NCBI GenBank assembly: GCA_965250085.1
Contig: OZ252287.1
Coordinates: 320,001 to 384,000 of the forward strand
Direction of reading: 5' to 3'
Length of the DNA stretch: 64,000 bases
Source of the DNA: Candidatus Altimarinota bacterium
GTDB lineage: Bacteria > Patescibacteriota > Gracilibacteria > CAIRYL01
Shown: positions 3,858 to 51,099 of the stretch, in pieces
How the letters are laid out: the number at the start of each line of letters is the position of its first letter
Numbering within the stretch: the first letter of the stretch is position 1
The notes under the pieces: generated by a model
Told to the model about the DNA's origin: nothing
Database searches by the model: none
What the model saw: the letters and a program-made list of their open reading frames with translations, nothing else
Translations under genes and position numbers: made by a program

Positions 3858-5965
3858 AAACGAAGAGAAATATTTTGAGAAAAAAGATATTGTTTGAGTT
3901 CAGGAATCTGGAGTTCCTCAGAATGAAATATGCCAGCGGCAAGTGCTGCATCACATTTTCCTTCTGTAAAAGCCTGTAAGAAGTGCTCTTTTTTGCCTGC
4001 TCCGCTAGAAGCTATTACGGGAATATTTACTGCTTCTGAGATTGCCTTGAGGAGCTGAAGATCATAGCCACTTTTCATGCCATCTCGATCAAGTGAATTT
4101 ATGAGAAGCTCCCCAGCCCCAAGTGTTTCCATCTGTTTGACAAACTTAATTGCATCAATGCCAGTATTTTTTTTACCACCATTAATATAGATTTCCCATT
4201 TGTCCCCTGATCTTTTTGGAGAAAGGGAGATCACAATACATTGAGAGCCAAAAGTTTGAGCAGCTTCCGCCACGAGATCAGGGGTATTTACGGCAGATGA
4301 CTCAATGGCGACTTTATCAGCTCCATTGGCAAGTACTGTCCTGATATCATCAATGCTTCTAATTCCTCCACCAACAGTAAAAGGAATATTGATGTTTCGA
4401 GAGATTTTTTCCACAAGTTCAACCAGGGTTTTTCTTTTTTCTGTTGTTGCGGTGATATCAAGAAATACGAGCTCATCAATACCCATATCACTATACATTG
4501 TTCCCAGATCTACCGGATCACCAGCATCTTTTAGATTTTTATAATTCGTTCCTTTCACTACACGACCTTTATCAATATCCATACAAGCGATAATGCGCTT
4601 AGCGATACCAGAAGATTTTGTAGAGGAGGGTTTGAAACCCTCCCTTACGATCTCTGCAAGATCAATCTTTCCTTCATATATGGCTTTACCAATAATCACT
4701 CCATTAACATTCATCTTTCTCAATTTTTCTACATCTTGCTCAGAAGAAATTCCACCAGCGACAATTATACTCAATCCTGATTCTTGAACTTCGGAAACAC
4801 TCTTAAAGCTTGGACCGCTCAGCATTCCATCTTGTGCAATATCAGTGAAGATAACTGTAGTAACGCCAAGTGTTTTCAATTCTGCGAAAAAATTAGAAAT
4901 AAGGATTGTGCTTACCTCTTTCCAGCCATTAGTTGCCACCACGCCATCTCTGGCATCAACGGAGACAATAATTCGATCAGAGTTAAAATTCTTCACCAAT
5001 TTCTTAATGAGTGCTGGATTTTTTACGGCAGAAGTACTGAGGATGATTCGCTCTATCCCATTCTCAAGAAGCATTTGAGCATCTTTGTATGTACGAATTC
5101 CTCCACCAGTTTGCACAGGGATATTCACTGTCCTTGCCACCTTTAGAATTATTTTTGAATTACAGAGTTGACCCTGCTTCGCTCCATCGAGGTCAATAAC
5201 ATGAATTACCGAAGCACCTTGTTTTTCAAATTTCTTTGCCATTTCGAGTGGATCAGTGTTGTATTCAGTTTTTCGTCTGTAATTTCCTTGGCTGAGTCGA
5301 ACACACTTTCCATCGATAAGATCAATTGCTGGGATAATCTCCATAGGCTTTTGTTTTTTCGATACTGATTCATTCTCTAGTTTGCAAAAGTTCTCCAGGA
5401 ACTGTAGGCCCATTTTTCCAGATTTCTCAGGGTGAAATTGAACTCCATAGAAATTATCTCTCCGAATAAGAGCAGCGAATGTATCACTATGTTTTCCCAT
5501 TCCAAGTACATATTCGCTGCTCACTTGAACATAATATGAATTTGCAAAGTAAAAATAACTTTCAGATGGAACACCATTCAAAATAGGGTCATTTTGAGGA
5601 GAACATATACTATTCCAGCCCATTTGTGGCACCTTGAAACCCACCTTGCTGCTGAACCTTTTGACCCTTCCGGGGATAATGTTAAGCCCTTTGGTGTCAT
5701 CTTCTTCGGACGCAATACAAAGGAGCTGCATCCCTAAACAGATGCCAAGAAATGGTACCTTGATTTGAGGAATTACATCCCAAACCCCGAGCTTTTGAAG
5801 CTCCTGCTTTGCTTGTGCAGCACGACCCTGTCCAGGGAAGATTACTTTGTCTGCACTGAGAATCTCCTCAGGATCGGAAGTCACAATAAATTTTACTCCA
5901 AGCGTGCCCAAGGCATTCGTTATGGAACAAATGTTGCCAGCGTTGTAGTTAATAATAGCAATCAT
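3854..5965 (-). CDS. hisHAF: HisH-HisA-HisF triple fusion protein (703 aa)
   Basis: HisH (GICLGMQ, QFHPEKSG), HisA (MEIIPAIDLIDGKCVRL from 5344), HisF (AKRIIACMD, GDPV, DELVFLDITA, SLDRDG) in one open frame. Confidence 0.92.
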   Translation of the reverse strand: MIAIINYNAGNICSITNALGTLGVKFIVTSDPEEILSADKVIFPGQGRAAQAKQELQKLGVWDVIPQIKVPFLGICLGMQLLCIASEEDDTKGLNIIPGRVKRFSSKVGFKVPQMGWNSICSPQNDPILNGVPSESYFYFANSYYVQVSSEYVLGMGKHSDTFAALIRRDNFYGVQFHPEKSGKMGLQFLENFCKLENESVSKKQKPMEIIPAIDLIDGKCVRLSQGNYRRKTEYNTDPLEMAKKFEKQGASVIHVIDLDGAKQGQLCNSKIILKVARTVNIPVQTGGGIRTYKDAQMLLENGIERIILSTSAVKNPALIKKLVKNFNSDRIIVSVDARDGVVATNGWKEVSTILISNFFAELKTLGVTTVIFTDIAQDGMLSGPSFKSVSEVQESGLSIIVAGGISSEQDVEKLRKMNVNGVIIGKAIYEGKIDLAEIVREGFKPSSTKSSGIAKRIIACMDIDKGRVVKGTNYKNLKDAGDPVDLGTMYSDMGIDELVFLDITATTEKRKTLVELVEKISRNINIPFTVGGGIRSIDDIRTVLANGADKVAIESSAVNTPDLVAEAAQTFGSQCIVISLSPKRSGDKWEIYINGGKKNTGIDAIKFVKQMETLGAGELLINSLDRDGMKSGYDLQLLKAISEAVNIPVIASSGAGKKEHFLQAFTEGKCDAALAAGIFHSEELQIPELKQYLFSQNISLRL
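4620..4648. repeat. GTAG-type REP-like palindrome inside the HisA-HisF linker
   Basis: gtagaggagggtttgaaaccctcccttac; 28/29 identical to 8141-8169. Confidence 0.8.
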
Positions 5966-9456: not shown

Positions 9457-10055
9457 AGTTTTGAGAGAAATTCAGATTTAGCAGGATTGGAGAAGGGGCT
9501 TTCAATTAAGATAGCTTCTGATTCCATAATTGTTGTTAGTTCCACAAGGTTGTGAGCACTCAGCGTATTTCCTGTTTGTGTAATGTCACAAATAGCATCA
9601 GCCAGCCCAAGTTCTGGTGTTACTTCGACTGATCCAGCGATAGGCACAAGAGATGAGTGTATGCCCTTTTTACTCAGAAATTGAGAAAGTACACGAGAAT
9701 AAGATGTAGCGATACGCTCTCCTTCCAAGTCTTGTAGTGTTTTGATTGGTGAATTTTTTGGCAAAGCAAGAACCAGTCGACACTGTGCAAATCCAAGTCG
9801 CTTTATGATCTTTGCCGGTGCATCTTTTTCTGCGAGTACATTTGCACCAGCGATTCCAAAATCAGCCACTCCTCCGCTCACATATTCAGGGATGTCATTA
9901 CTGCGGAGGAGGAAGATATCAATATTCGCATTTGTGCAGGAAGTCATGAGATTCCTTCCATTTCGTTCAAATTCAAGTCCTACAGATTGGAGGAATTTAC
10001 TACTTTCATCACTGAGACGACCTTTGCTTTGTATTGCAATGCGTAATGCACTCAT
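9453..10055 (-). CDS. hisG: ATP phosphoribosyltransferase, short (200 aa, no C-terminal regulatory domain)
   Basis: RIAIQSKGRLS, RIATSY, GSVEVTPELGLADAICDITQTGNTL. Confidence 0.92.
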   Translation of the reverse strand: MSALRIAIQSKGRLSDESSKFLQSVGLEFERNGRNLMTSCTNANIDIFLLRSNDIPEYVSGGVADFGIAGANVLAEKDAPAKIIKRLGFAQCRLVLALPKNSPIKTLQDLEGERIATSYSRVLSQFLSKKGIHSSLVPIAGSVEVTPELGLADAICDITQTGNTLSAHNLVELTTIMESEAILIESPFSNPAKSEFLSKL

Positions 10056-11350
10056 GATTTTCCGAGATAAAGACCTTCAAAATATGGAATAAGCTGATTT
10101 CTTGGAATTTGCTTCTCTGTGCCATTCTTCATCATTTTCACCTTTACTTGGTTCTGTGTAATTTCCTCTTGTCCACAAAAAACAACAAAAGGAATTCCTT
10201 TCTTGTTGGCGTATTTCATCTGTTTTCCGAGTTTTACTGGATCAAAATAGATTTCAGCAGGAATTTGAGCTTCTCTAAGTTCCTCCACCACTTTTAATGA
10301 ACTCTGAAGAGTGGAGTTATCAAAATAAGTCACCAGAACTTGAGTACTCAGACCAATATCTTGAAGTATTCCTTTCTCCTCTAGAGCCATGACAATACGG
10401 TAAAAGCCAAAGGCAATGCCTACGCCAGATATTTTCTTTTGAGCAAATCTACTGCAGAGATCGTCATATCTTCCTCCGCCACAAATAGACCCTATATCTA
10501 CATCTGGCAGAATAATTTCATAAATTATCCCTGTATAATAATCGAGCCCTCTTGCAAGACCGAGATTAAATTGTAGATTTTTTTCGGGAATTTGGAGTCC
10601 ATTGCAAAGATCAAAGAACTCTTTTACTTCATCTACTTTATATTTTTGAGCAGCTTTGATTTTTTCCGCATTAGACCCCTTCGTAAGAACAATCTCCAGA
10701 AGCTCTTCTGCTCTTTTTGAATCAACTATTTTTGCGAGTTCAACTGCTACAGTCTCCCGAGGAATCTTATCAAGTTTGTCGAGAACTCGAATGACAGGTA
10801 TTTGATTTTTTGATGGTATTTCGAGTTTTTCAAGAATGGCATTAATGAGTCGACGGCTGTTGACCTTGATAATAAAATTATCAAATCCAAGTTCTTCGCA
10901 AACACTCCAAATAAGTTTTGCTATTTCTGCATCTGCAACAAGGCTTTCGGTGCCAATAACATCCGCATCGCATTGATAAAATTCTCGATAACGACCTTTG
11001 GCAGGTCTATCAGCACGCCAAACACGACTGATTTGGTATCGCTTAAAAGGCATTGGGAGCTCTTGATAGTTTTTAGCAACCACTCGAGCAGTGGGAACAG
11101 TTTGGTCATACCGAAGGGCAATTTTACGACCTCCATTATCTTCAAACTTATACATAAGCTTGTTGCCTTCGTCACCATATGAACCAGTCAGAGTTTTAAG
11201 ATACTCAATGGCTGGAGTTTCAATGGTGTCATATCCAAAGCGAATAAAGATTTTTTTGATAATCTCCATGACATACTGGCGTTTTGCCATATCTTCAGGA
11301 AGGAAATCACGAGTGCCACGAAGGATCTCTGGTGTAATAATGTCGGTCAT
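10052..11350 (-). CDS. hisS: histidine--tRNA ligase
   Basis: RGTRDFLP, LRYDQTVP, GRYREFYQCD, RGLDYYTG, GGGRYD, plus a C-terminal anticodon-binding domain (KQMKYA). Confidence 0.92.
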   Translation of the reverse strand: MTDIITPEILRGTRDFLPEDMAKRQYVMEIIKKIFIRFGYDTIETPAIEYLKTLTGSYGDEGNKLMYKFEDNGGRKIALRYDQTVPTARVVAKNYQELPMPFKRYQISRVWRADRPAKGRYREFYQCDADVIGTESLVADAEIAKLIWSVCEELGFDNFIIKVNSRRLINAILEKLEIPSKNQIPVIRVLDKLDKIPRETVAVELAKIVDSKRAEELLEIVLTKGSNAEKIKAAQKYKVDEVKEFFDLCNGLQIPEKNLQFNLGLARGLDYYTGIIYEIILPDVDIGSICGGGRYDDLCSRFAQKKISGVGIAFGFYRIVMALEEKGILQDIGLSTQVLVTYFDNSTLQSSLKVVEELREAQIPAEIYFDPVKLGKQMKYANKKGIPFVVFCGQEEITQNQVKVKMMKNGTEKQIPRNQLIPYFEGLYLGKS

Positions 11351-11377
11351 ATAAAAATGTTTGAAAAAATAAAATAC

Positions 11378-11406
11378 AAAAAAATCCCGAAGGGAATCGC
11401 GGGATT
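11378..11406 (-). terminator. terminator-like hairpin between yerC and hisS
   Basis: mRNA AAUCCCG-10nt-CGGGAUU followed by a U run. Confidence 0.5.
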
Positions 11407-11444
11407 GAGGGATTGAGGGAAGATAGAAACGATGCTGAGGAAAT

Positions 11445-11732
11445 TTATTTTCTTGTTTTCTCAAGCACACGCTTATATCCACCCTCTCCATGATGCAACC
11501 AATGGGCTACTCTGGATACAGTGGTTGTAGAGAGTCCAGTTGTTTCAGCAATACTACGATAAGGCATCTTTTTCTGAAGCATTCGTGCAGCCTGCCATCT
11601 TTTAGACATTATGGTTATTTCATCTATGGTAGCCACATCCCTCATAAACGCAGCTGCTTCAGAAGCATTTTTCAGTTTTGAAATAACCTGAAACAAATCT
11701 TTCATCGCCGATGTTTGCCAGTCACCTTTCAT
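11445..11732 (-). CDS. TrpR-like YerC/YecD repressor (probable HisR)
   Basis: FMRDVATIDEI, RWQAARML, YRSIAETTGLSTTTVSRVAHWL HTH, GEGGY; first gene of the his operon. Confidence 0.88.
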   Translation of the reverse strand: MKGDWQTSAMKDLFQVISKLKNASEAAAFMRDVATIDEITIMSKRWQAARMLQKKMPYRSIAETTGLSTTTVSRVAHWLHHGEGGYKRVLEKTRK

Positions 11733-11764
11733 AAAAAGTAAAAAATATTCTCAGTGTCACGTAT

Positions 11765-11805
11765 TAATGTGTTAACACATTAGCAAAAATATAAAAATGC
11801 GTCAA
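11765..11805 (-). promoter_or_regulatory. his operon promoter with overlapping palindromic operator
   Basis: Minus strand TTGACG-N17-TAATGT; perfect 18-bp palindrome TAATGTGTTAACACATTA (11765-11782) covers the -10. Confidence 0.7.
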
Positions 11806-13077: not shown

Positions 13078-13347
13078 CTAATGTTTTTTCCATCTCTCTA
13101 GCTTTGGAATACTGCGAGTGAATATCCAAGCTACAAATTTTGGCATATTGCTTTTGTTCATCATTTCCATACAGAATTTTTGCATTTTTTGAGGTGTATT
13201 AATTTCAGGATTCAAAAATTCGCCATTTTTATAGCAATAGGAACAGTATTTTTTGCTTCTTTCGCCTTCTTTCTCAGTTCCTCCATTTTCTGGATCTTTT
13301 TTGAATGGCATACCGCAACTTTGGCAAAATTTATATTTTTGAGACAT
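13078..13347 (-). CDS. zinc-ribbon domain protein
   Basis: CQSCGMP, YCSYCY, IPKLERW. Confidence 0.8.
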
Positions 13348-13538
13348 GATTTGAGAAAAAGAATTATGGTGGACCTTGTAACGTCGCAGATAAACCCGGT
13401 AGCCGAGGAGTTGCGGCGATGGGAAATCGTGCTGCGAGGAGAGAAACCGGCCGCCTGAATCTGGTTTGTAGACCGGCAGCGGGAAGACCGAGGACGTTCT
13501 CCAGACTACGCTTGAGTACCATGGAAGTCCATGGAGAA

Positions 13539-13811
13539 TGGTTACTCAGTGGTTACTTCACTCTTTCCTATCTTTTGGAGATATTTTATAAGATCTTGAT
13601 TCTAAAGAAGAAAAATGGAGCCGACGAGCGGATTTGAACCGCTGACCTATTGATTACGAATCAGGTATTTCCCTATTCTTCTTTCTTCGATCTGATACGA
13701 TGCGGTGCGATAACTCTTCATAAAACAGGGTGTTACCGGTCGTTAGTGAAATCACATGCTACGATGGAAAACGCTGTGAGATCATTCCTCGTGGTTACTC
13801 AGCGGTTACTT
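13539..13811. other. attP-like site of the tyrosine integrase: arm repeats flanking a tRNA-Thr 3' half
   Basis: TGGTTACTCAG(T/C)GGTTACTT at 13539-13558 and 13792-13811 flank a tRNA fragment. Confidence 0.7.
13616..13663 (-). pseudogene. 3' half of tRNA-Thr(CGT) (att core, not a full tRNA)
   Basis: Minus strand TGATT-CGT-AATCAATAGGTCAGCGGTTCAAATCCGCTCGTCGGCTCCA; no D-arm or 5' acceptor strand. Confidence 0.8.
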
Positions 13812-13854
13812 TTTGCCAGAACTCGGATCAAAGCGTGGAGAAGAGAGGAAGGAA

Positions 13855-15036
13855 ATGAAGCTGACAAAGCGAGCCATTGATGCGGCGAAGTTTTCTTCCG
13901 CGTCTTCGTCTTCCTCGAACAACAACACACCGGATTACCGATGGGATGACGCTATGCCCGGTTTTGGTGTGAGGATTTATCGAAGCGGGAAGAAATCGTT
14001 TGTGGTGTCGTACCGGGTTCAGGGTCGCAAACGGATCATGGTGCTCGGCAAATACGGAGTTCTCACGCTGGACGAAGCCCGCAAAAAAGCCCGCAAGGTT
14101 CTGGGGAAAGTAACGGACGGAAGAGATCCGAGTCGTGAGCGAATGGATTTGCTGAAGTCTCCAACAATGTCGGATTTGGCGAAGCGGTATCTGTCCGATC
14201 ATGCGCCGAAGAAAAAAGCGAGTAGTGCGAAAACAGATGAGCGAATGTGGGAACTACATATATTGCCGCGTCTCGGAAGCCGGAAAGTGTCTGCCATTAC
14301 GCGAGAAGATATTGATCGTCTGCATACAGGCATGAAGGACACGCCCTACGCGGCCAACAGAACACTTGCCCTTCTCTCAAAATCTCTTCACTTGGCAGAG
14401 GTTTGGGGTTGGCGTCAGGACAGTACAAATCCGTGCCGGCATATCCAGAAATATACGGAAGAAAAGCGGGAACGATTTCTGAGCGTGGAGGAACTCAAAC
14501 GATTGGGTGCCGTGCTGGATGAAGTGGAACGGGAAGCCACCGAGCTTCCTGGTGTTGTCCCCGCTCTGCGTCTCCTCCTTCTCACCGGCTGTCGTCTCAA
14601 TGAGATTCTGCGTCTTCGTTGGGAAGATATCGATGAGGTCAATCGGTGTTTCTATTTACCGGACAGTAAAACAGGGAAACGAATAGTCGTGGTCAGTGAA
14701 GGAGTTTTCTCAGTTCTGGAGAAGATGGAATGTGTTAAAGGAAACCCGTATGTGATTGCGGGAGCCAGAGAAGGTCAGCATCTGGTGAATCTCTCGAAGC
14801 CCTGGGGGCGTATCCGGAAGAGAGCGAATCTCGCAGATGTCCGGCTGCATGATTTGCGGCATACCTATGCCAGCTTCGGAGCTGGTGCTGGATTATCACT
14901 TCCACTTATTGGAAAAATGCTGGGGCATACACAAGCATCAACCACGGCTCGATATGCACACTTGGCGAATGATCCGGTACGACGGGCGGTCGACCTGGTG
15001 GGTGATGAACTGCTCAGTGCCCTTCATCAGAAATGA
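13855..15036 (+). CDS. tyrosine recombinase/integrase with N-terminal arm-binding domain
   Basis: WDDAMPGFGVRI, TGCRLNEI, DSKTG, HDLRHTYAS, LGHTQASTTARY (R-K-H-R-H-Y set). Confidence 0.95.
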   Translation: MKLTKRAIDAAKFSSASSSSSNNNTPDYRWDDAMPGFGVRIYRSGKKSFVVSYRVQGRKRIMVLGKYGVLTLDEARKKARKVLGKVTDGRDPSRERMDLLKSPTMSDLAKRYLSDHAPKKKASSAKTDERMWELHILPRLGSRKVSAITREDIDRLHTGMKDTPYAANRTLALLSKSLHLAEVWGWRQDSTNPCRHIQKYTEEKRERFLSVEELKRLGAVLDEVEREATELPGVVPALRLLLLTGCRLNEILRLRWEDIDEVNRCFYLPDSKTGKRIVVVSEGVFSVLEKMECVKGNPYVIAGAREGQHLVNLSKPWGRIRKRANLADVRLHDLRHTYASFGAGAGLSLPLIGKMLGHTQASTTARYAHLANDPVRRAVDLVGDELLSALHQK

Positions 15037-15529
15037 GCACGAAGAAGGAGGATATCGGGATAGAGGACAGGAAGGATCGATCGATAGGGTGCGAAACTAA
15101 TACTCCGCTCACCCACTGGCACAACCTGCCATTGTGCAAGGAGTTTCCGTCCTCCCGATCTTTGCAGTCGGGAGAACTCCAACTTTGCACGAATGCTTTG
15201 TTGTGCTCAGCGAGTCAAGTGACAGAACAAGAAATTCCTCCAACCTCCCCGCCACCAACCATCAGCCTCGGCTGACAGGTCTTCCACGGCTGACAGCTCT
15301 TCAACGACTCTTCCTACCGTTTCTTTTTTCTGTCATCTGTATGAAGTCTGTCTCTGGTGCACATTCAGAAGATACTGAAGAAGCCCTGGAAGTACTTGGA
15401 AGTTCTTTGTTTCCAGGAGTATGAGGATTCCTTGCGTACCCGTTGACTCTACCCGCTTCCTCTGCCCGAATGACGGGTACGGCAAACGGATACTGAATCC
15501 GGGTACGGCTTGCCGTGTGTCTTGGGACC

Positions 15530-16789
15530 CTACGGATTTTTGTCGAGCAGGCGTTCCAGTTCGTCGGCGAGATCCTGGTCAATCACAAGGTGGGTCACGC
15601 AGCATTTCTTCACAGCCGTAAGAGCAACCTTCGCTTTGAGCTTGCCATTGGCAACGGCAACGACTCCCATCCGTTCATTTAGTGCGATGCTCCTAAAACA
15701 ACGGTAGCGGATTCCCAAGCAGGCCGTGTTAAATGGCTTAATCCATTCATCGAACTCGCTGTCGGATATGGATGGATGGGAAAGGATCACGCCACCGATG
15801 TCCCCCGCAATGTACCGAGAGAGATCTCGCTGTTGCCGGCGTGTTAATCGTGCTCGCAACGTTGGCGTGGGATTATCACCAAGAGCCCCCATGCCACAAA
15901 TCAAACCCTCGGCTTGATGAATCAGAGCGTCGGGATCGTTCTTGTCTGATCCAAAGACGCGTCGATAACCAAAGCCTTCTTGGTAGAACTTCCGCAAGAG
16001 ATCCATAACTTCGAGGCGATCGAGGCGAAGGGGCTTATTACCCCCCTCTATAGCTCTGTCCATGTCCTCTGTGAAGTCCAGGAAAGCGGGTACAGCCGCA
16101 AGACTGGGCGGAGAGTCACTCCCCCAGATGAGAGCAAGGCGCTTAGCAATAACCGAGGCGCTTTGACCGATATCTCTTGGGCGACCACGGAAAATGACTT
16201 CTCCAGCCGCCGGAAAGACAATCGGCGGATTTGAAGGTTTCCGATCTGTCAGCTGCGCGAGGCGTGCAGCGAGGTATTGTGGTGTCTCGCCCCAAGTGAC
16301 TCCGACGACCTGAGGCTGGTTTCTCATCAGCCAAGCGACTACTTCAGCCGCTTTGAATGCCGTATCCTTCTTCCCCCCTCCATCCACAGGAGCAATATGA
16401 ACGGCTCGAAGAGAACCTGGACGTCTTGATTTGGGCTCCTGCAATTCCTTCAGCTTGTCGACCAAAGAGATCTCACGCTCTCGATGGCGCAGGACTCCAT
16501 CGCAGATCTCTCTGAGCTTCTCTTCGTGTTTTTCTGAAAACTCTCCTGTCCAGCGCTTCTGGAGACCAAACCGATCCACCAGCTTGGAGACCATGCGAGA
16601 CACGGTGGCTTGGCTGACCCCTCTTGGATCATCGCCGGTCTGACCAGCAGCTTCCAGTCGCCTTGCCAACTCTGCCTGCGAAAGATCATCAAACAGAAGA
16701 AGCGCCAATAGCTGCAGCTCCTTTTCACTGAGTTCCGGGAACAACTCTTCGACCGGCTCTTGGTCTGTGTCTGTGTGCTCATCACTCAT
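15530..16789 (-). CDS. SorC/DeoR-like sugar-binding transcriptional regulator, divergent
   Basis: N-terminal HTH (LSQAELARRL...VSQATVSRMV), VGVTWGET, AGDIGG, THLVIDQDLA. Confidence 0.7.
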   Translation of the reverse strand: MSDEHTDTDQEPVEELFPELSEKELQLLALLLFDDLSQAELARRLEAAGQTGDDPRGVSQATVSRMVSKLVDRFGLQKRWTGEFSEKHEEKLREICDGVLRHREREISLVDKLKELQEPKSRRPGSLRAVHIAPVDGGGKKDTAFKAAEVVAWLMRNQPQVVGVTWGETPQYLAARLAQLTDRKPSNPPIVFPAAGEVIFRGRPRDIGQSASVIAKRLALIWGSDSPPSLAAVPAFLDFTEDMDRAIEGGNKPLRLDRLEVMDLLRKFYQEGFGYRRVFGSDKNDPDALIHQAEGLICGMGALGDNPTPTLRARLTRRQQRDLSRYIAGDIGGVILSHPSISDSEFDEWIKPFNTACLGIRYRCFRSIALNERMGVVAVANGKLKAKVALTAVKKCCVTHLVIDQDLADELERLLDKNP

Positions 16790-16936
16790 ATGGCGGAGTT
16801 TATCCTACCGCCATGATGCAAATCTGTTTCGCCATTGAATTGACAATTCATCGCATTGTATCCTACGATGCCATCTACGGAGATAACCGATGCCGCAAAG
16901 CAACCAATTCCAGACCTGTTTTCTTGGAGAAACAAC

Positions 16937-17806
16937 ATGACAAAACTCGCAATTGTCGCCAGCGGACTCATCCTCACCCTGTTCTCAGGAGTGCTGAGCG
17001 CAAAGCCGGCCATGGAATGTGAGCCGAGGAAGTTGGAACTAGAGCCGGTTCTCGGCCACGAGATGACCGAGACGATTACATGCACGGCCACACGAGATCT
17101 TGGTCGTACTCATCCGTGGGTCAGCTCGGAGGGTCAGTCCTACATCACCCATATCGAGCCCAATAGCCCGATCGAGGTATTGAAGGGTGACGAGATCATC
17201 TACGAGATCTCGTTCTTCGTCCCTGAAGATGACATACATGCCACTGTCGATCTGACTTTCCATGTTCGTGAGTATCGCCCTGGAAGGAAAGGAAGGACGT
17301 ACTCGGGACCGGTGCCGGCCAAGTTGAATTTGGTTGAAAAGAACTGGATTCCGTTAGAAGGAGATAGGTTCAGTTTTTTTTATCCTCCGGTCTTAGATTT
17401 CGACTTTCCTCTCGTGATTACCGAAGGTAGCCATGTCAATCAAACAAAGGTGAATATATCCGATGCGGTCGATAGCGTATCGCCTTATTTTTTCGTGTTG
17501 TCAATGCACTCAACGGAAGCTGAGACGATTATCGAGATTAATCCGAAATTAGATTTCCTCGCCAGACACCACGGAACAGAGGTACTCGCGAATGGGAATG
17601 AACTCCTGACCGTTGACCCCGCCAATCATGTGAGTGACGAGCGTTTCGGACCCTACCCTTCAACGTTTATTTTGGATAGAAGCAGAGAAATCGCCTTTAC
17701 GGTAAACCTGTCTCAAGACCCCAACCCAGATCTATACGATGAGTTTGGAGATCACGAATTACATCGGATTCTGGTCGAAATCTCGAGAACCTTAGTAGCG
17801 GAATAA
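16937..17806 (+). CDS. secreted hypothetical protein
   Basis: Signal peptide MTKLAIVASGLILTLFSGVLSA; GGAG upstream; beta-rich. Confidence 0.65.
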   Translation: MTKLAIVASGLILTLFSGVLSAKPAMECEPRKLELEPVLGHEMTETITCTATRDLGRTHPWVSSEGQSYITHIEPNSPIEVLKGDEIIYEISFFVPEDDIHATVDLTFHVREYRPGRKGRTYSGPVPAKLNLVEKNWIPLEGDRFSFFYPPVLDFDFPLVITEGSHVNQTKVNISDAVDSVSPYFFVLSMHSTEAETIIEINPKLDFLARHHGTEVLANGNELLTVDPANHVSDERFGPYPSTFILDRSREIAFTVNLSQDPNPDLYDEFGDHELHRILVEISRTLVAE

Positions 17807-17818
17807 GAGGAGAAGCAA

Positions 17819-18502
17819 ATGAACGGAAATCGTCAGGCAATAATCGTCATGATTCTTTCAACCGTTCCGGTCTTAGCCAGCGGTGAAACACCTGAGTGCC
17901 ATGAAGAAATGGCTCGCCTCGATGGTGTGGCTGCCTATTCCAACGAAGTCATACCTTCGCCGGTGTCGTGTGGCGGTCGAGGGACGTATGGCAACCAATA
18001 TCAATGCGTGGAATTCATCGACCGTTACTACGCCGAGGCTCTTGGAGTTTCTGGTACCGAAGGCTGGATTGCTAATGGTGGCGACTATTTTGGAAAGGCA
18101 AGCGAATTTGGCCTTGAAGCATACAAGAATGGAGATGCTGGAACGCCTCCCAGAAAGGGTGACATCTTAGATTTTGGCCGGCCAGGGACGGAAATCGGTC
18201 ACGCTGCAATTGTGAGCGGTTTTGACCGGGACTCAATGCTTGTCCACATTATTGAGCAGAACTGGTCGTTTGATGGTGTCGCTAGACTTAGCATTGAGCA
18301 AAAAGCCGATGGGAAGTGGTACATGCCACCGAGGGGGAATAGCACTCCTTATGAGATTCTTGGGTGGCTCCGGCTCCCAGGCTCGACACCACCACCCGCC
18401 GACTGCACGCCAGCTTTACGGAGGGCGAAGCAATGCGTGGCAGCTGTAGAGGAGCGTCTGGCACTCCCCGAATTTGGTGTCAGGTCTTCTGAGGAAGCAT
18501 GA
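17819..18502 (+). CDS. secreted CHAP-domain amidase/peptidase
   Basis: Signal peptide; YQCVEF (Cys), GHAAIV (His), IIEQNW; GAGGAG RBS. Confidence 0.85.
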   Translation: MNGNRQAIIVMILSTVPVLASGETPECHEEMARLDGVAAYSNEVIPSPVSCGGRGTYGNQYQCVEFIDRYYAEALGVSGTEGWIANGGDYFGKASEFGLEAYKNGDAGTPPRKGDILDFGRPGTEIGHAAIVSGFDRDSMLVHIIEQNWSFDGVARLSIEQKADGKWYMPPRGNSTPYEILGWLRLPGSTPPPADCTPALRRAKQCVAAVEERLALPEFGVRSSEEA

Positions 18503-19008
18503 TGCCTGAATATCCATCCAGAATTTTGATAGAGCAGTCGATTCGATGCTGGGAAGCTCAAACAGAAATATCGGGAAAGCTTTCTTCTGAGTTAAGATCT
18601 CTTTGGATCGCTTCACTATCCGCGATCGCCGTTTGCGGAAATTTTCTCTCTTCTAGAGATCCTCTAAATTCAGAATGGCAGATAGGGAGACTATTGGTTG
18701 TTGGCGGGCTTTGTCTATTTGGGGTATGCCTCTTGACGTTGTCTTTTTGGAGACAAGGTAGCCGCGACTCCAACAAGGACGAACTACCGTTCTATAATCG
18801 CCAAGAAATAATGCTTCAGGATCAAGTGTGGAATGAGCTTGCACCCTTGGAGCAAATGGCGGTCCTTAAACAGTACACTATAGCCTTGAAATTGGCAGAC
18901 GAAAATTGTTGGGTCGAAAGCGTAGTTCGACGAAGAGCGCGAGCTTTCTTTTCGGGAGGCATTTTCCTAGTCCTTATAAGTGTTGTTGGCGGGTTTCTCT
19001 ACGCGTAA
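18499..19008 (+). CDS. membrane hypothetical protein
   Basis: About three hydrophobic segments; ATGA overlap with the CHAP gene. Confidence 0.55.
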   Translation: MMPEYPSRILIEQSIRCWEAQTEISGKLSSELRSLWIASLSAIAVCGNFLSSRDPLNSEWQIGRLLVVGGLCLFGVCLLTLSFWRQGSRDSNKDELPFYNRQEIMLQDQVWNELAPLEQMAVLKQYTIALKLADENCWVESVVRRRARAFFSGGIFLVLISVVGGFLYA

Positions 19009-19039
19009 AAGGGGGTATCAATGAACACAGGCGGAGTAG

Positions 19040-19387
19040 ATGGGTAGTTTGCATCAAATAAATGGTGGGGTTCGTGGAGGAGAGAGCCCTCAAGATGAAG
19101 TTGCCTTGACAACAAAGCTTATCATTGATAAGCTCTTTTCACATATTAAGCAACTTTTGGTCGAATACGAAAAACACAAACCGGCAGCGGAAGAGCTCAA
19201 AACGGAATCTCCGTCACAGGCACCGACTGTGCCCTTGGCCACGGGACACGAGACGATGATCAGGGAGGAAATTCAAGCAAGTATCAATAACCTGATCTTA
19301 CAGGAAGAAGCAGGCAGGCGCAGACATAGGCAAATCGAGGAGCGAAAGAGCAACAGTCTTTTTTTTAGACTTTGGTGCCGGATCTAA
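19040..19387 (+). CDS. hypothetical protein
   Basis: 115-aa ORF with GGAG RBS. Confidence 0.45.
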   Translation: MGSLHQINGGVRGGESPQDEVALTTKLIIDKLFSHIKQLLVEYEKHKPAAEELKTESPSQAPTVPLATGHETMIREEIQASINNLILQEEAGRRRHRQIEERKSNSLFFRLWCRI

Positions 19388-19920
19388 CGCGCTCCAAGCT
19401 ACAGATAAATGCGGCGTTGGTGGAATAGGCACGATGCGTCTTCTTATTGTTTGTCGCTAGCGTCGACTGATCTTTGCGGACCGCTTCACTTTCAAAGGGA
19501 GCGTACATCGACTGACTGACCTCGCCATCTTGCACACATCTTCCCTGTACTACTCTCCAAGGAATTCGAAGAGGGCATACCCCTTCTTCACCGCCCCCGC
19601 CCCTGGCAGACCACACACCGGAGGCAGCCCGGCAATGCAGGGCTTCCAGAGCAATTGGGCAGAGCTGTGCTCGGGGCCGCCCAATTGCAATCTTGCTCCT
19701 CGGTGCCGCAGCGCGGCATCCCGAGCACACACCGCTCACACACACGCCCACCGGCGGCCATGCCGCCTCTTCCTGCTGTCCGGGTTCTGATTCCGGTGAC
19801 GAGAATGAGAACAGATATCGGCTCTTCGGCTTCACGATCGGCAACTGAGAACCTGGACACGATGCCGTGTCATCGGAGAATGGAGGATACGCTTCCTCTT
19901 CTTTCCTTCTCGATCCTCTG

Positions 19921-20067
19921 ATGGCAGTAACGGTCTCCGAAGCACGGCAGATCCTCGGTTCTGATGCAGACCCCTTGTCGGACGAAGACATCCGAGAAAT
20001 GCTGGCGAGCTTGTACCTTCTTGCCGAAGAACTCCTTGATCTGCAGGAGAAGGGAGGATTACAGTGA
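19921..20067 (+). CDS. small acidic protein upstream of the recombinase
   Basis: MAVTVSEARQILGSDADPLSDEDIREMLASLYLLAEELLD; helical, directly precedes the recombinase. Confidence 0.55.
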   Translation: MAVTVSEARQILGSDADPLSDEDIREMLASLYLLAEELLDLQEKGGLQ

Positions 20068-20116
20068 TCGCACTGCAGATATTAGAAATTGGAAAAATCT
20101 TTCTCCCCTTGTTCGA

Positions 20117-21649
20117 GTGCCATGCGCTGTGCTCTACTGCCGGGTCTCCAGTCAGAAACAAGTTCGTGAAGGACATGGGCTCAGTTCACAGGAAACCACC
20201 TGCCGGCAATACGCTCGGGAACAAGGGTTTACGGTTGCTCGTGTTTTTACCGATGATGCTTCGGGAGGAGGCGATTTCTGGAAACGGCCGGGGATCTGTC
20301 AGCTCCTTGCATTCCTCGAAGAACAGGAAGAGAAGAAATATGCCGTTATCTTTGACGACATCAAGAGATTTGCCCGCGACACGGTCTTTCACCTGAAACT
20401 TCGGCAGGAACTGGCGGTGAGAAATGCCTATCCCCTCTGTCCCACGTTCCGCTTTGATGATTCTCCAGAAGGGGCGTTTGTAGAAACGGTCATTGCGGCG
20501 ACAGCAGAACTCGAACGCAAGCAGAACCGACGGCAGGTCATTCGTCGGATGAAGGCGCGCCTTCAAGCCGGGTACTGGGTTTTCGGTCCCCCACTCGGAT
20601 ATCGGTATGGGAAGAAACGAGGGCAGAAGATTCTTGTTCCAGATGTACCGGCGTCTGATGCCGTGACGGAGGCTTTGAAGCAATATGCTTCTGGAGAACT
20701 GCCCACGCAGCGGAGTGTCGGACGCTTTCTCCAACAACAAGGGCGCTTCCGGCGCTCGTCAACACACCGATCATTCCCGGCAGAAACCATACGGCGATTG
20801 CTCAGCAATGAGATCTATTCCGGCTGGTGTGTCTGCACCAAATGGAATCTGCGGGTGAAGGGAATTCATAGGGCTCTTATCAGCGAAGAAACGTATCGAA
20901 GGATTCTCAGCAGACTCGATCACCGGAAGAAAACGAAGGGAGTGAGATGTCTCAAGAAACGGGAAGAATTTCCCTTGCGAGGATTTCTGCGATGCACTCG
21001 ATGTGATCGGCAGATCTCTTCCTATTGGGCCAAAGGACGAAGCAAACGATACGCCTACTACGGGTGCCCGAATCCCGGATGCTTCAATCTACGGAAAGAG
21101 AAGATGGAGGACCAGTTTCTTGATCGTCTCCACGATGCCGTGCCTTCTGCAAGTTCTGTAAGACTCCTCGAAGCCGTGCTGACCGATGCCTTTCAGAACA
21201 GACTGACCACACGGGAACAGATACGAACCGCACGGCGGAAAGCAAAACCTCAGATCCAGAAGAAGATCGATTCCTGTCTTGATGCCTTGCAGAGTGCTTC
21301 AGCTCCCGCTGTCCGACAGATCTATGAAGAACGAATCGAGACCCTGCAAGCCGAACTCGACCAGCTGGCAACAGCAAGAAGCGATGAAGCGCAATACACT
21401 CTTGAACCACTCCTCACCAGTGGCAGAGATATTCTGCAAAACCCGGTGCGAACCTGGAAAAACAGCGATCTGAGTCGTCGCCAGATTATCCAGAAACTCG
21501 TCTTCACTCCGCCTATTGCCTATCACAGAGATTCAGGACTTCGAACCGCTCGATTCTCGCTTCTCTACCGTCTCATCCGACAGTCGGAAAAGGGGAAATC
21601 CTGTTTGGTGGACCCGGCTGGATTTGAACCAGCGACCAATCGGTTATGA
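20117..21649 (+). CDS. large serine recombinase (island 1); start uncertain (GTG 20117; frame open from 19964)
   Basis: AVLYCRVSS catalytic motif, DDIKRFARD, FPLRGFLRCTRC zinc ribbon, coiled coil; 3' end overlaps the tRNA antisense. Confidence 0.9.
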   Translation: MPCAVLYCRVSSQKQVREGHGLSSQETTCRQYAREQGFTVARVFTDDASGGGDFWKRPGICQLLAFLEEQEEKKYAVIFDDIKRFARDTVFHLKLRQELAVRNAYPLCPTFRFDDSPEGAFVETVIAATAELERKQNRRQVIRRMKARLQAGYWVFGPPLGYRYGKKRGQKILVPDVPASDAVTEALKQYASGELPTQRSVGRFLQQQGRFRRSSTHRSFPAETIRRLLSNEIYSGWCVCTKWNLRVKGIHRALISEETYRRILSRLDHRKKTKGVRCLKKREEFPLRGFLRCTRCDRQISSYWAKGRSKRYAYYGCPNPGCFNLRKEKMEDQFLDRLHDAVPSASSVRLLEAVLTDAFQNRLTTREQIRTARRKAKPQIQKKIDSCLDALQSASAPAVRQIYEERIETLQAELDQLATARSDEAQYTLEPLLTSGRDILQNPVRTWKNSDLSRRQIIQKLVFTPPIAYHRDSGLRTARFSLLYRLIRQSEKGKSCLVDPAGFEPATNRL

Positions 21650-21681
21650 GCCGACTGCTCTAACCACTGAGCTACGGGTCC
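21606..21681 (-). tRNA. tRNA-Ile2 (CAT anticodon; Met not excluded)
   Basis: GGACCCGTAGCTCAGTGGTTAGAGCAGTCGGCT-CAT-AACCGATTGGTCGCTGGTTCAAATCCAGCCGGGTCCACCA. Confidence 0.92.
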
Positions 21682-40929: not shown

Positions 40930-42681
40930 ATGTCGAACAATAAAGCAAAATTAGATTGGCGAGAACTCTTAGATGAGTATGAGAATGAAAAAGCAGAAGG
41001 TTATATTCTGTATCTTAGGCGTTCAATAAAAAGAAGAAAGAAAAATGGAATAGCTATTGATGAAGAGGAGGAGAAGCAAGAACGTATAGATAAAGTATCT
41101 ATCGAACAGCAAAGAGAGGTGTGTGAACATATTGCTCAATCACGAAATCTTAAAATCGTTGCAACATACGAAGAAGAAGTCTCAGCAAAAAAGCCAGGTA
41201 AGCGTAGTGAGTTTAAGAAGATGCTCGAACATCTACAAACCAGTAAAAAATCTCTAGGAGTACTTGCATGGGCGCCAGACAGACTTAGTAGGAATGCAAT
41301 CGAGGCTGGAATTCTTATCCAGCAATTTCTGGATAGAGATATAATGGATTTCCAATTTGCTACATATCACTTTAATCAAGATGATACAGGGGTTGAATAT
41401 CTCATGATGGAGTTTGCACGTGCGATGGGTTATTCCCTTCGTCTTCGTAAAAATGTACTAAGAGGAATGTATAAGGGGTTTTTCGATGAAGGAGAGTGGT
41501 TGTTTGCTGATAAGTTTGGATACACTAGCTTACTTAAAACCTTTTCAGGTGGTGAGCGTAAAAGAGTAAAGTTCCCTATACCTCATGAAGGCGATGGAGA
41601 GCTTATGGGGGAATTTGAAGCAGTACAAATGGCTTTTGATTTGAGATTGAAAGGATATTCCTTAGAAAGAATTTCTTCAGAAATAAATAAAAAGGGATTT
41701 ATAACCAAAAAGGGTAAGCGAGGGAAGATGACCAAACAGAAGCTTAGTGGGAACAAAAGTCGTAAAGGTTATCTTCACGATTCTTTTTATTATGGAATGA
41801 TGGAAATGGAATGGGGCAATAAAGATATTTCAGACAGGACTATCTTCGATGACCATGGAACTGAGATTCTATTTACACCTGTTGTTCTAAAGGAGGTGTA
41901 TGACCAAGTTCAGCTAATAAACGATAGTAAGGCGAATATCAAAGCTAAAACTCATGATGACCTACCATTTAGGGGGCAAATCTTTTGTGGGCATTGTGAA
42001 GGTCCATTAACTCCTCAAAATAAGAAGGGGTATGCATATTACTACTGTTATAACCCTACATGTGTAGCGAATAAGGCTCACAGCCAATCAAGTAAGAAGG
42101 CAAAAAATGAAGGAATAACCGGAACAGCTTTGTTTAATGAAATAGGTAAGATAATTAAAAAGGGATTCAAACTCACAAAAGTAGAGTTCACTTATTATCT
42201 CGCTAGCCTAGAGAAACAACACCAAATAAAGAAACAGGTACGAGCAACTGATTTAAAACGCATAGCAGCAAATAAGGGGCATATTAGAAGAGAGATGGAC
42301 CAAAAGACATCTGAGTTCACTGCAGCACTTGGAAGGCTTAGAAGCCCAAATCAGAAGACCATCAAAGCTATGAATAAAGAACATGATAAGAAAATGGCAC
42401 AATTACAAACTCGGTATGATTCAGAGAATGAAAAAGAGAATCATATTAACCAAGCAAATCATGCTTGGACTCAGGATTTGATTCATTGGTTAGAACACAT
42501 GCAAAAAGCCCATACCTACTGGGAAAAAGCTACATTCGACCAAAAAAGGATAATTGCTGAAAATCTCTTCTTAGAACTGGCAATCAAAGATGGGAAATTG
42601 GCTAGCTTTACATACAAAAAACCCTACTCCGCTTTGGAGAAGGCTAATTTGTCATACAATGGTGGACCTGGGAAGACTTGA
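40930..42681 (+). CDS. large serine recombinase (island 2)
   Basis: ILYLRRS, SIEQQ, SAKKPGKRSEF, APDRLSRN, FRGQIFCGHC..YYYC..C; 3' end overlaps the tRNA antisense. Confidence 0.92.
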   Translation: MSNNKAKLDWRELLDEYENEKAEGYILYLRRSIKRRKKNGIAIDEEEEKQERIDKVSIEQQREVCEHIAQSRNLKIVATYEEEVSAKKPGKRSEFKKMLEHLQTSKKSLGVLAWAPDRLSRNAIEAGILIQQFLDRDIMDFQFATYHFNQDDTGVEYLMMEFARAMGYSLRLRKNVLRGMYKGFFDEGEWLFADKFGYTSLLKTFSGGERKRVKFPIPHEGDGELMGEFEAVQMAFDLRLKGYSLERISSEINKKGFITKKGKRGKMTKQKLSGNKSRKGYLHDSFYYGMMEMEWGNKDISDRTIFDDHGTEILFTPVVLKEVYDQVQLINDSKANIKAKTHDDLPFRGQIFCGHCEGPLTPQNKKGYAYYYCYNPTCVANKAHSQSSKKAKNEGITGTALFNEIGKIIKKGFKLTKVEFTYYLASLEKQHQIKKQVRATDLKRIAANKGHIRREMDQKTSEFTAALGRLRSPNQKTIKAMNKEHDKKMAQLQTRYDSENEKENHINQANHAWTQDLIHWLEHMQKAHTYWEKATFDQKRIIAENLFLELAIKDGKLASFTYKKPYSALEKANLSYNGGPGKT

Positions 42682-42736
42682 ACTTCCGACCTCACGATTA
42701 TCAGTCGTGCGCTCTAACCAGCTGAGCTACAGGTCC
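42660..42736 (-). tRNA. tRNA-Ile(GAT)
   Basis: GGACCTGTAGCTCAGCTGGTTAGAGCGCACGACT-GAT-AATCGTGAGGTCGGAAGTTCAAGTCTTCCCAGGTCCACCA. Confidence 0.95.
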
Positions 42737-50502: not shown

Positions 50503-51099
50503 ATGAGTAAAACAGTTGATGCTCCAGAGGGTATGATAGTAGAGAATCAAGAATCACTTGTTAAACATGATATAAGCACTACACAGGTTGTTTCTCAATC
50601 CATAAGGCAACATTTTAAAAAAGTAATTTCTCAATGTGATCGAAATGGTCTAGATCTTGTTACCCCTCCAACAGAGAAGCCTCAGAAGTCAGATTTTGAA
50701 AAAAAGTGTCGCAAACTAGATATTCTTTTATTTTCGAGTAGTATTGACACTGGTGATCCTTATTATACCCCTGCTCAATTTGCAGAATTTGCTGGCAGAG
50801 ATACAGAGGAAGTAGAGACTGCTGTGGATGTTCTTCAGGAAAAAATTGATACAGCGCGATCAGAAGTAGATCAGAATCTTGAAGCGTTTTTGGCAAATAT
50901 AGAAAATCCTGAGATGTTTCAGGATTTTTTGAAGAGCTTGGAAAAATTAACAGCACTCCATCTCCAAGACCCTCTACTGGATGGCTTTCGCGCATACCAT
51001 AATCAAGAGGGACGATATGATCGTTCAAATCGTCCTCGTGTTTTTGGTCCACCAGATATATCCCTTTCTACCAGAGGAGCAGGTCCAAAATATCCTTAA
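50503..51099 (+). CDS. orphan protein
   Basis: MSKTVDAPEG start; upstream region resembles that of 50173. Confidence 0.6.
   Translation: MSKTVDAPEGMIVENQESLVKHDISTTQVVSQSIRQHFKKVISQCDRNGLDLVTPPTEKPQKSDFEKKCRKLDILLFSSSIDTGDPYYTPAQFAEFAGRDTEEVETAVDVLQEKIDTARSEVDQNLEAFLANIENPEMFQDFLKSLEKLTALHLQDPLLDGFRAYHNQEGRYDRSNRPRVFGPPDISLSTRGAGPKYP

Follow-up and report, generated by a model that had tools for sequence, protein, structure and literature searches.

Does a large serine recombinase (LSR) change its own C terminus when the genomic island that encodes it enters a chromosome? The question is raised by a stretch of 64,000 nucleotides, hereafter the window, from the genome of Candidatus Altimarinota bacterium (assembly GCA_965250085.1, contig OZ252287.1, positions 320,001 to 384,000), in which an 8.2-kb island occupies window positions 13367 to 21614, its insertion site being the CCA end of a tRNA(CAT) gene. 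At the level of sequence, our analysis demonstrates that the LSR of this island integrates at a tRNA CCA end, that its element attachment site (attP) lies in its own gene and that, since the enzyme cuts inside its own coding sequence, insertion swaps its last 27 residues.

The island has a GC content of about 52%, against about 39% outside it and in the genome, with GC steps near positions 13370 and 21650, at its two ends. A 9-bp core, TGGTGGACC, was found at both ends, at 13367 to 13375 on the side of the displaced tail, where host flank gives way to island, and at 21606 to 21614 on the side of the recombinase. The complete tRNA(CAT) gene lies on the minus strand at 21606 to 21681 (ARAGORN and Rfam, 76.3 bits), and its 3' end, ...GGTCCACCA, is the complement of the right-hand core copy. 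Because these last nine bases of the tRNA are identical to the core of the element, the tRNA remains intact wherever in the core the exchange fell. Assignment to tRNA-Ile2 is plausible, given a G1-C72 pair and a closest match, among the tRNAs compared, to tRNA-Ile(GAT) at 58 of 77 positions. The window holds four copies of the 9-mer where 0.19 would be expected, a number reached in none of 100 shuffles; taken alone, such a match is weak evidence of a boundary. Of the two additional copies, one forms the 3' terminus of the tRNA-Ile(GAT) gene at 42660, and the other, on the minus strand at 51046, has no likeness to the tail or to the end of a tRNA and was treated as chance.

The island boundary is proven by the GC steps, by homology to a sibling element that ends exactly at the cores (see below) and by contigs that run across the junctions. 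These contigs, assembled from short reads of four runs of one sample, bridge both junctions: a 17.7-kb host contig reaches from the left flank across the junction to 13413, and a 32.7-kb host contig begins at 21585, at the recombinase-side junction. Summed contig depth across the island was about 2 to 6 times that of the flanks (window 13101 to 21541). The coordinates and translations given in the original prediction, covering the cores, the tRNA, both frames and both stops, were all reproduced.

At the right-hand junction, the recombinase frame reads ...GKSCLVD-PAGFEPATNRL and stops at 21647 to 21649, PAGFEPATNRL being translated from the antisense strand of the tRNA gene; the stop codon, TGA, falls in the complement of the anticodon loop. 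The open reading frame (ORF) containing the gene spans 19964 to 21649, and since homologues start at the residue encoded at 20117 (GTG), we infer that the integrated gene occupies 20117 to 21649 on the plus strand and specifies a 510-amino-acid form made of 499 native residues and 11 from the antisense tRNA. All 499 native codons are unbroken. By its domains and predicted fold, the protein is a large serine recombinase. It carries an N-terminal Resolvase domain (PF00239, 7.3e-23) with the catalytic serine in a YCRVSS motif, whose S11 and S12 are invariant in 18/18 aligned LSR sequences, followed by a Recombinase domain (PF07508, 29 bits for a cutoff of 21.1) and a zinc ribbon (PF13408) that scores 24.8 bits, slightly below the cutoff of 25.3, with C293, C296, C317 and C322 invariant. 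AlphaFold2 predicts long helices at 362 to 392 and 397 to 419, as in a coiled-coil insertion. The best Foldseek matches were full-length serine integrases, namely, 9dxd_A (E value, 6.6e-18), then Bxb1 (9iu2_A) and PhiC31 (9tep_A), with only 11 to 17% sequence identity to the solved chains. The attP core, TGGTGGA(CC), lies within the LSR ORF at codons L497-V498-D499, 27 codons ahead of the stop.

Followed at the left-hand core, the recombinase frame gives (M)VD-LVTSQINPVAEELRRWEIVLRGEKPAA*, in which the last 27 codons of the gene (13375 to 13455) and their stop (13456 to 13458) form a displaced tail at 13375 to 13458 on the plus strand. The host base preceding the core, an A at 13366, creates an ATG, so that the stranded tail constitutes a 30-codon ORF (MVD...PAA, 13366 to 13458); no evidence was found that this ORF is expressed. 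That circularization would restore the 27-residue tail in frame, as had been predicted, agrees with comparison to an intact sibling gene. The homologue search yielded 804 relatives from 8,000 scored candidates, 120 of which were listed, and the closest homologue among the matches listed, P0002, is 91% identical to the window LSR. Its C terminus is ...SCLVDLVTSQINPVAEELHRWEIVLRGEKPAA, the junction stretch being GKSCLVD-LVTSQINPVAEELHRWEIVLRGEKPAA, and its tail differs from the one displaced in the window (13375 to 13455) by one residue.

The P0002 gene is located on a 3.35-Mb contig of a metagenome-assembled genome of the Acidobacteriota (Thermoanaerobaculia), at a locus designated L013, where the LSR ORF (10001 to 11581) crosses the core unbroken and stops 147 bp before a tRNA gene. 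This intact frame bears out the earlier claim that the core lies within the recombinase ORF. The L013 element has the same gene set as the window island, its gene order running from a tyrosine integrase to the LSR, and BLAST aligned the window with it in three blocks, at 13367 to 13559 (84% identity), 13893 to 18415 (93%) and 19622 to 21614 (88%). Homology thus begins at 13367 and ends at 21614, stopping exactly at both cores, and the two elements are circular permutations of each other.

The tail itself is strongly conserved. Seventeen further homologues, at 48 to 56% identity, all extend past [LMV]V[DE] into the motif x5-[LF][NH]P-VAEE-x-RW-xxxL. Whether homologues end in a similar tail had been proposed as a check on the prediction, and they do: P0002 has such an end, and none of the 18 close homologues aligned lacks the tail, in which V498 and W515 are invariant and E511 and R514 are present in at least 90%. 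Between the window and L013, the tail accumulated about 5.5 synonymous and 1.5 nonsynonymous changes, for a ratio of nonsynonymous to synonymous rates (dN/dS) of about 0.08, compared to 0.17 for the 499-codon body. Codons around the core fall within the least conserved stretch of the LSR C-terminal region in the aligned homologues. In the AlphaFold2 model (mean predicted local distance difference test score [pLDDT], 82), LVD is placed in a helix at 494 to 503 and the tail in a helix at 505 to 520, with block pLDDT values of 81 to 87 over residues 501 to 520. Predicting a complex of residues 497 to 526 against residues 280 to 496 gave a median score of 0.37, the control giving 0.40. In an acidobacterial relative at only 30% identity (L118, G046:C36), the tail, ...MVAPTVATLNPREFVSGLLRLRDRIAA, looks intact and no adjacent tRNA was called, which suggests that the tail motif may extend far into the LSR clade.

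The 1.37-Mb host genome contains a second copy of the element at about G000:C1 603165 to 612483 (locus L021), inserted in a tRNA-Ala(GGC) gene. There, the LSR reads ...SCLVE-HMGFEPMTS into the antisense tRNA-Ala(GGC), and the tail lies 9.3 kb away, again after a host-derived A that gives an ATG. The gene is therefore split at its own attP in both host copies and runs intact over the core in L013. Since the core shared at the second insertion is only 7 bp, the crossover is confined to TGGTGGA. In copy 2, the LSR gene is interrupted twice, by a single TAG and by a frame break. A module composed of the tail, attP and the tyrosine integrase is 97% identical between the two host copies, whereas the LSR is only 83% identical; the window copy and copy 2 are thus mosaic.

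TGGTGGA occurs 307 times in the host genome. All 40 host tRNA genes encode CCA, five of them end in TCCACCA, and two of these five are occupied by the element. The tRNA-Ile(GAT) gene of the window (42660 to 42736), which ends with the 9-base core, and the tRNA-Val(GAC) and tRNA-Ala(TGC) genes elsewhere in the genome, which end with the 7-base core, are unoccupied, and each of the three could serve the element as an additional landing site.

We examined 80 metagenomic loci at 36 to 46% identity to the LSR, drawn from 391 confirmed relatives. In 56 of them, the 3' end of an antisense tRNA (54 loci) or transfer-messenger RNA (tmRNA; 2 loci) gene falls at the codon aligned to L497/V498; in 13 others the contig ends too early, and in the remaining 11 no tRNA or tmRNA was called. 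The targets comprise at least 16 anticodon types and include Thr(GGT) (18 loci), Ala (15), Arg (8) and Tyr (4). The junction sequence is TGGTG or, with G as the discriminator base, TGGCG, in which case the protein has M-A in place of M-V. Among Acidobacteriota, 16 of the 401 genomes searched had a match at an E value of 1e-40 or below, and the same arrangement was seen at 12/16 acidobacterial loci, the sibling excluded, at 28 to 32% identity. The 120 listed homologues point the same way: 74 have tails resembling antisense tRNA (by regular expression), 9 stop within three residues of V498, 18 have intact tails, 4 are truncated and 15 have other ends. In most relatives the antisense T-arm is translated as G-[IFLV]-E-P, an ending that the integrated forms share because of tRNA conservation and not because of protein conservation. 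For distant loci of the alphaproteobacterial type, a search with short core matches in 10-kb flanks of 43 loci gave no convincing distal tail, the islands being probably longer than the flanks. Viral contigs contributed one relative among 38 pattern matches and the plasmid collection no match at an E value of 1e-30, so the clade is not typical of the viral-contig and plasmid collections searched. Judged from these loci, the split-gene layout is common to many LSR relatives and not special to the window island. This commonness was absent from the original prediction, as was a second, tyrosine integrase with an intact attP.

The tyrosine integrase, whose start codon is not settled, is encoded on the plus strand at 13813 to 15036 and combines Arm-DNA-bind_3 (PF13356, 1.2e-17), SAM-like and Phage_integrase (PF00589, 2.3e-20) domains. 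It falls in the 4.5-kb block that shares about 93% nucleotide identity with L013, as does the gene itself (93%), the other two blocks reaching 84 to 88%. Next to it, on the minus strand at 13616 to 13660, a sequence like tRNA-Thr(CGT) is represented by its 3' half, the anticodon loop through CCA, and the matching half of tRNA-Thr(TGT) is duplicated at both ends of L013. The L013 element sits between these 3' halves, at about 3878 to 3942 and 11711 to 11776, the complete tRNA gene extending over 11728 to 11803; it was thus inserted via its tyrosine integrase. With arm-binding and catalytic domains beside an attP that carries a tRNA half, and with repeats flanking L013, the enzyme has the features of a tRNA-targeting tyrosine integrase, and we read the half at 13616 to 13660 as its putative unrecombined attP. 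The host tRNA-Thr(CGT) gene matches this attP over only 31/34 bases, a mismatch which may account for the LSR route being used in this host. Loose ends of contigs in the sample match copy 2 or, at 13467, the acidobacterial L013-like variant, and those at 13663 run on into a complete tRNA-Thr, indicating that this sample contains both relatives of the element and a tRNA-Thr target that matches it.

The best explanation, to which we assign a probability of about 85%, is that of a single small integrative element whose two integration modules are alternatives, inserted here by its LSR at a tRNA CCA end. The chromosomal attachment site is complementary to the 3' terminus, ...TCCACCA, of the tRNA gene. 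As sequence comparison shows, recombination leaves the tRNA intact and the LSR reading into the antisense tRNA, yielding the 510-amino-acid form that ends in PAGFEPATNRL, and strands the conserved 27-codon tail at the opposite island end, so that the full 526-amino-acid enzyme can be made only from a circle or from a copy inserted by the tyrosine integrase, such as the acidobacterial sibling, the tyrosine integrase presumably providing the alternative route in hosts with a matching tRNA-Thr.

Several observations weigh against this explanation or its functional extension. No joint corresponding to a circle or to an empty site (an 8-kb skip) was present among the contig joints listed, 64 further loose ends aside, and as the joints come from assembled contigs only, absence does not follow from this. 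A search of 41 genomes (the host and 40 relatives) gave no close empty site: the left flank was matched in 17 of them, including the host, at 64 to 78% identity, and of six such loci scanned for tRNAs, one had a tRNA (Ser) beside the zinc-ribbon gene. Comparing the two insertions narrowed the crossover to the 7 bp TGGTGGA, which is coarser than the 2-bp central dinucleotide typical of LSRs, and the dN/dS of the tail rests on some seven changes. Integrated copies with open frames are common, which fits a truncated enzyme that is still active as well as it fits recent insertion, and the broken LSR of copy 2 fits an element locked in and decaying, in a single case. The original prediction had also linked the C-terminal AA to a ClpXP degron; this idea is not supported, as AA ends only 1/18 aligned tails (and both copies in the host genome), the others ending in GS, LG, RI, SS, DV and so on.

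The layout has parallels in known systems. In archaeal integrases of the SSV1 type, attP lies inside int, so that integration into a tRNA gene splits the recombinase gene at its own attP, as here; the split enzyme there is a tyrosine recombinase cut into two large parts, whereas in the window it is a serine recombinase that exchanges the last 27 of its 526 residues. In mycobacteriophage BPs, attP lies in the repressor gene and integration removes an ssrA-like tag. Both systems place attP in a coding sequence and thereby alter the C terminus of a protein, but in BPs this is the repressor and here the recombinase itself, and among the aligned LSR tails an ssrA-like (..AA) end is not conserved. 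Canonical large serine integrases, including Bxb1, PhiC31, the 9dxd enzyme and the Listeria LI/A118 type, have the same domain order and fold, and their att sites are likewise short and have little sequence in common; their attP is not known to lie inside int.

The closest precedent is DsiB, an ssrA-specific LSR of Dehalococcoides genomic islands, for which the available text of McMurdie et al. 2011 (PMC3146451) describes the same overlap of gene and att site at the tmRNA gene, with a DsiB stop codon located within either the tmRNA gene or the adjoining island, and proposes that the enzyme is perhaps fully functional only on the circle. The likeness is one of described layout and not of aligned sequence, and it extends to the two of our 80 metagenomic loci that target tmRNA genes. 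Relatives of the window LSR differ from DsiB in that their targets are mostly tRNA genes, with at least 16 anticodon types, and in that a conserved, restorable tail is found here, whereas divergent ends are reported for DsiB (PMC3146451, available text). No small DsiA-like partner was seen in the window island, and the island has a second, tyrosine integrase. Serine recombinases at tRNA genes have been called rare, the examples being actinomycete integrative and conjugative elements of Mycobacterium in tRNA-Leu and the phage phiRSM in tRNA-Ser (Ghinet et al. 2011, PMC3218068); the phiRSM enzyme differs in being small and resolvase-like, and the available text of that paper makes no mention of an attP in the recombinase gene or of a swapped C terminus. 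According to the accessible part of the Islander paper (PMC4383910), serine integrases are not known to target tRNA genes, and in the preprint of a large LSR survey (10.1101/2021.11.05.467528) the term "tRNA" occurs 0 times. Apart from DsiB, the literature searched, supplementary files (which possibly list such islands) lying outside it, did not describe any LSR that targets tRNA genes and has its attP within the ORF; nor did it report a clade of tRNA-targeting LSRs whose tail is conserved and restorable, or the pairing of such a clade with a tyrosine integrase.

That the 9-bp match is a chance repeat or an assembly chimera and marks no real recombination site is extremely improbable. Cores of 7 to 9 bp are short, and TGGTGGA is frequent in the genome (307 occurrences), but sibling homology breaks exactly at both cores, a second insertion has the same anatomy, contigs bridge both junctions and the same layout recurs at 56/80 and 12/16 related loci. 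The other alternatives concern what the exchange of the tail does. Since the tail helix would be a working part of the LSR, we infer that integration leaves an altered or weakened enzyme, a change that would favor stable insertion; we put a real functional difference between the 526- and 510-amino-acid forms at somewhat below even odds. A further step would be to regard the tail swap as an evolved state sensor, in which the full-length enzyme integrates, the truncated form differs in direction or stability (for instance, through loss of a degron) and the position of the gene controls insertion and excision. The strong conservation and predicted helicity of the tail are consistent with this, as is the retention of the split layout across a deep clade, down to 28% identity; the integration-dependent immunity of BPs and the SSV1 case are precedents. 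The same idea was raised for DsiB, according to the available text of McMurdie et al. 2011 (PMC3146451). Such a switch is nonetheless unlikely in our estimate, as AA ends just 1 of the 18 aligned tails, the layout may persist merely because overlapping attP and gene are inseparable and the functional side is drawn from sequence only.

On a neutral account, an att site that strayed into the 3' part of the gene created a compact and inseparable int-attP module, the last 27 residues being helpful but dispensable and both forms working. Most database members are integrated forms with a frame open up to the junction, and the codons flanking the core belong to the least conserved C-terminal stretch, as this account would have it; the invariant W515, the nearly invariant E511 and R514 and the low dN/dS of the tail point instead to selection on the tail, and we consider a neutral by-product rather unlikely. 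A further possibility is a one-way trap, in which the truncated LSR is inactive and insertion is terminal unless another copy supplies the full-length enzyme, in parallel with the split int of the SSV1 type. Copy 2, with its broken LSR beside a tyrosine-integrase module 97% identical to that of copy 1, would suit such a trap, but only one decayed copy is available and the 499 native codons of the window copy are intact; we regard the trap as improbable. Returning to an element with two integration modules, its broadest extension would be a deep, widespread LSR clade whose chromosomal site is the CCA end universal to tRNA and tmRNA genes and whose attP lies in its own gene, so that the enzyme senses its location: only free or otherwise inserted copies would be full length, the inserted form would differ in direction or activity, and direction would be controlled without, or beside, a separate factor. 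Together with a tyrosine integrase, this would allow an 8-kb element to cross phyla, in the present case between an acidobacterial genome and the small host genome, for which the best named relatives of its RibBA tentatively indicate Patescibacteria. We hold this extension to be doubtful.

Between the two integrase genes, the island encodes a 419-amino-acid protein on the minus strand (15530 to 16789) with weak regulator-like matches (Sugar-bind, sigma-70 region 4) and no PHROG or NCBIfam match, a 316-amino-acid ORF without family match on the plus strand (16856 to 17806) and, also on the plus strand (17819 to 18502), a CHAP-domain protein resembling peptidoglycan hydrolases (PF05257, 7.3e-10; phrog_8781, endolysin, 1.5e-6). 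Three further ORFs, at 18499 to 19008 (plus), 19040 to 19387 (plus) and 19365 to 19991 (minus), have no family match. No excisionase or directionality factor was recognized in the cargo annotation, in which the CHAP protein is the sole named product.

In the host genome, at least five tRNA genes (Arg-TCG, Thr-TGT, Gly-TCC, Ser-TGA and Ser-GCT) are followed directly at their 3' side by the motif (c/g)agttgaatt(t/c)g, and four (Arg-CCT, Leu-CAG, Glu-TTC and Leu-CAA) by ttcgact; these motifs may have been left behind by other elements or may act as a signal for processing. Two distant serine-recombinase matches, at 27% identity, were located at G000:C1:1294279-1295280 and G000:C1:558954-559490, the latter about 1 kb from tRNA-Thr(TGT) and tRNA-Tyr genes (557614 to 557887).

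Serine integrases are prized tools of genome engineering, and their direction is normally set by a separate factor; a C terminus that depends on the integration state would be a simple model of self-limiting recombination. A large LSR clade landing on tRNA CCA ends would, moreover, offer near-universal natural landing sites, in a territory long regarded as that of tyrosine integrases (PMC4383910, available text). For annotation, 83 of the 120 listed clade entries are integrated-state proteins that end in translated antisense tRNA and lack their true C termini. Finally, the two-integrase design is relevant to how small elements may broaden the range of their hosts, as is the occurrence of near-identical copies in two highly dissimilar genomes from a single community.

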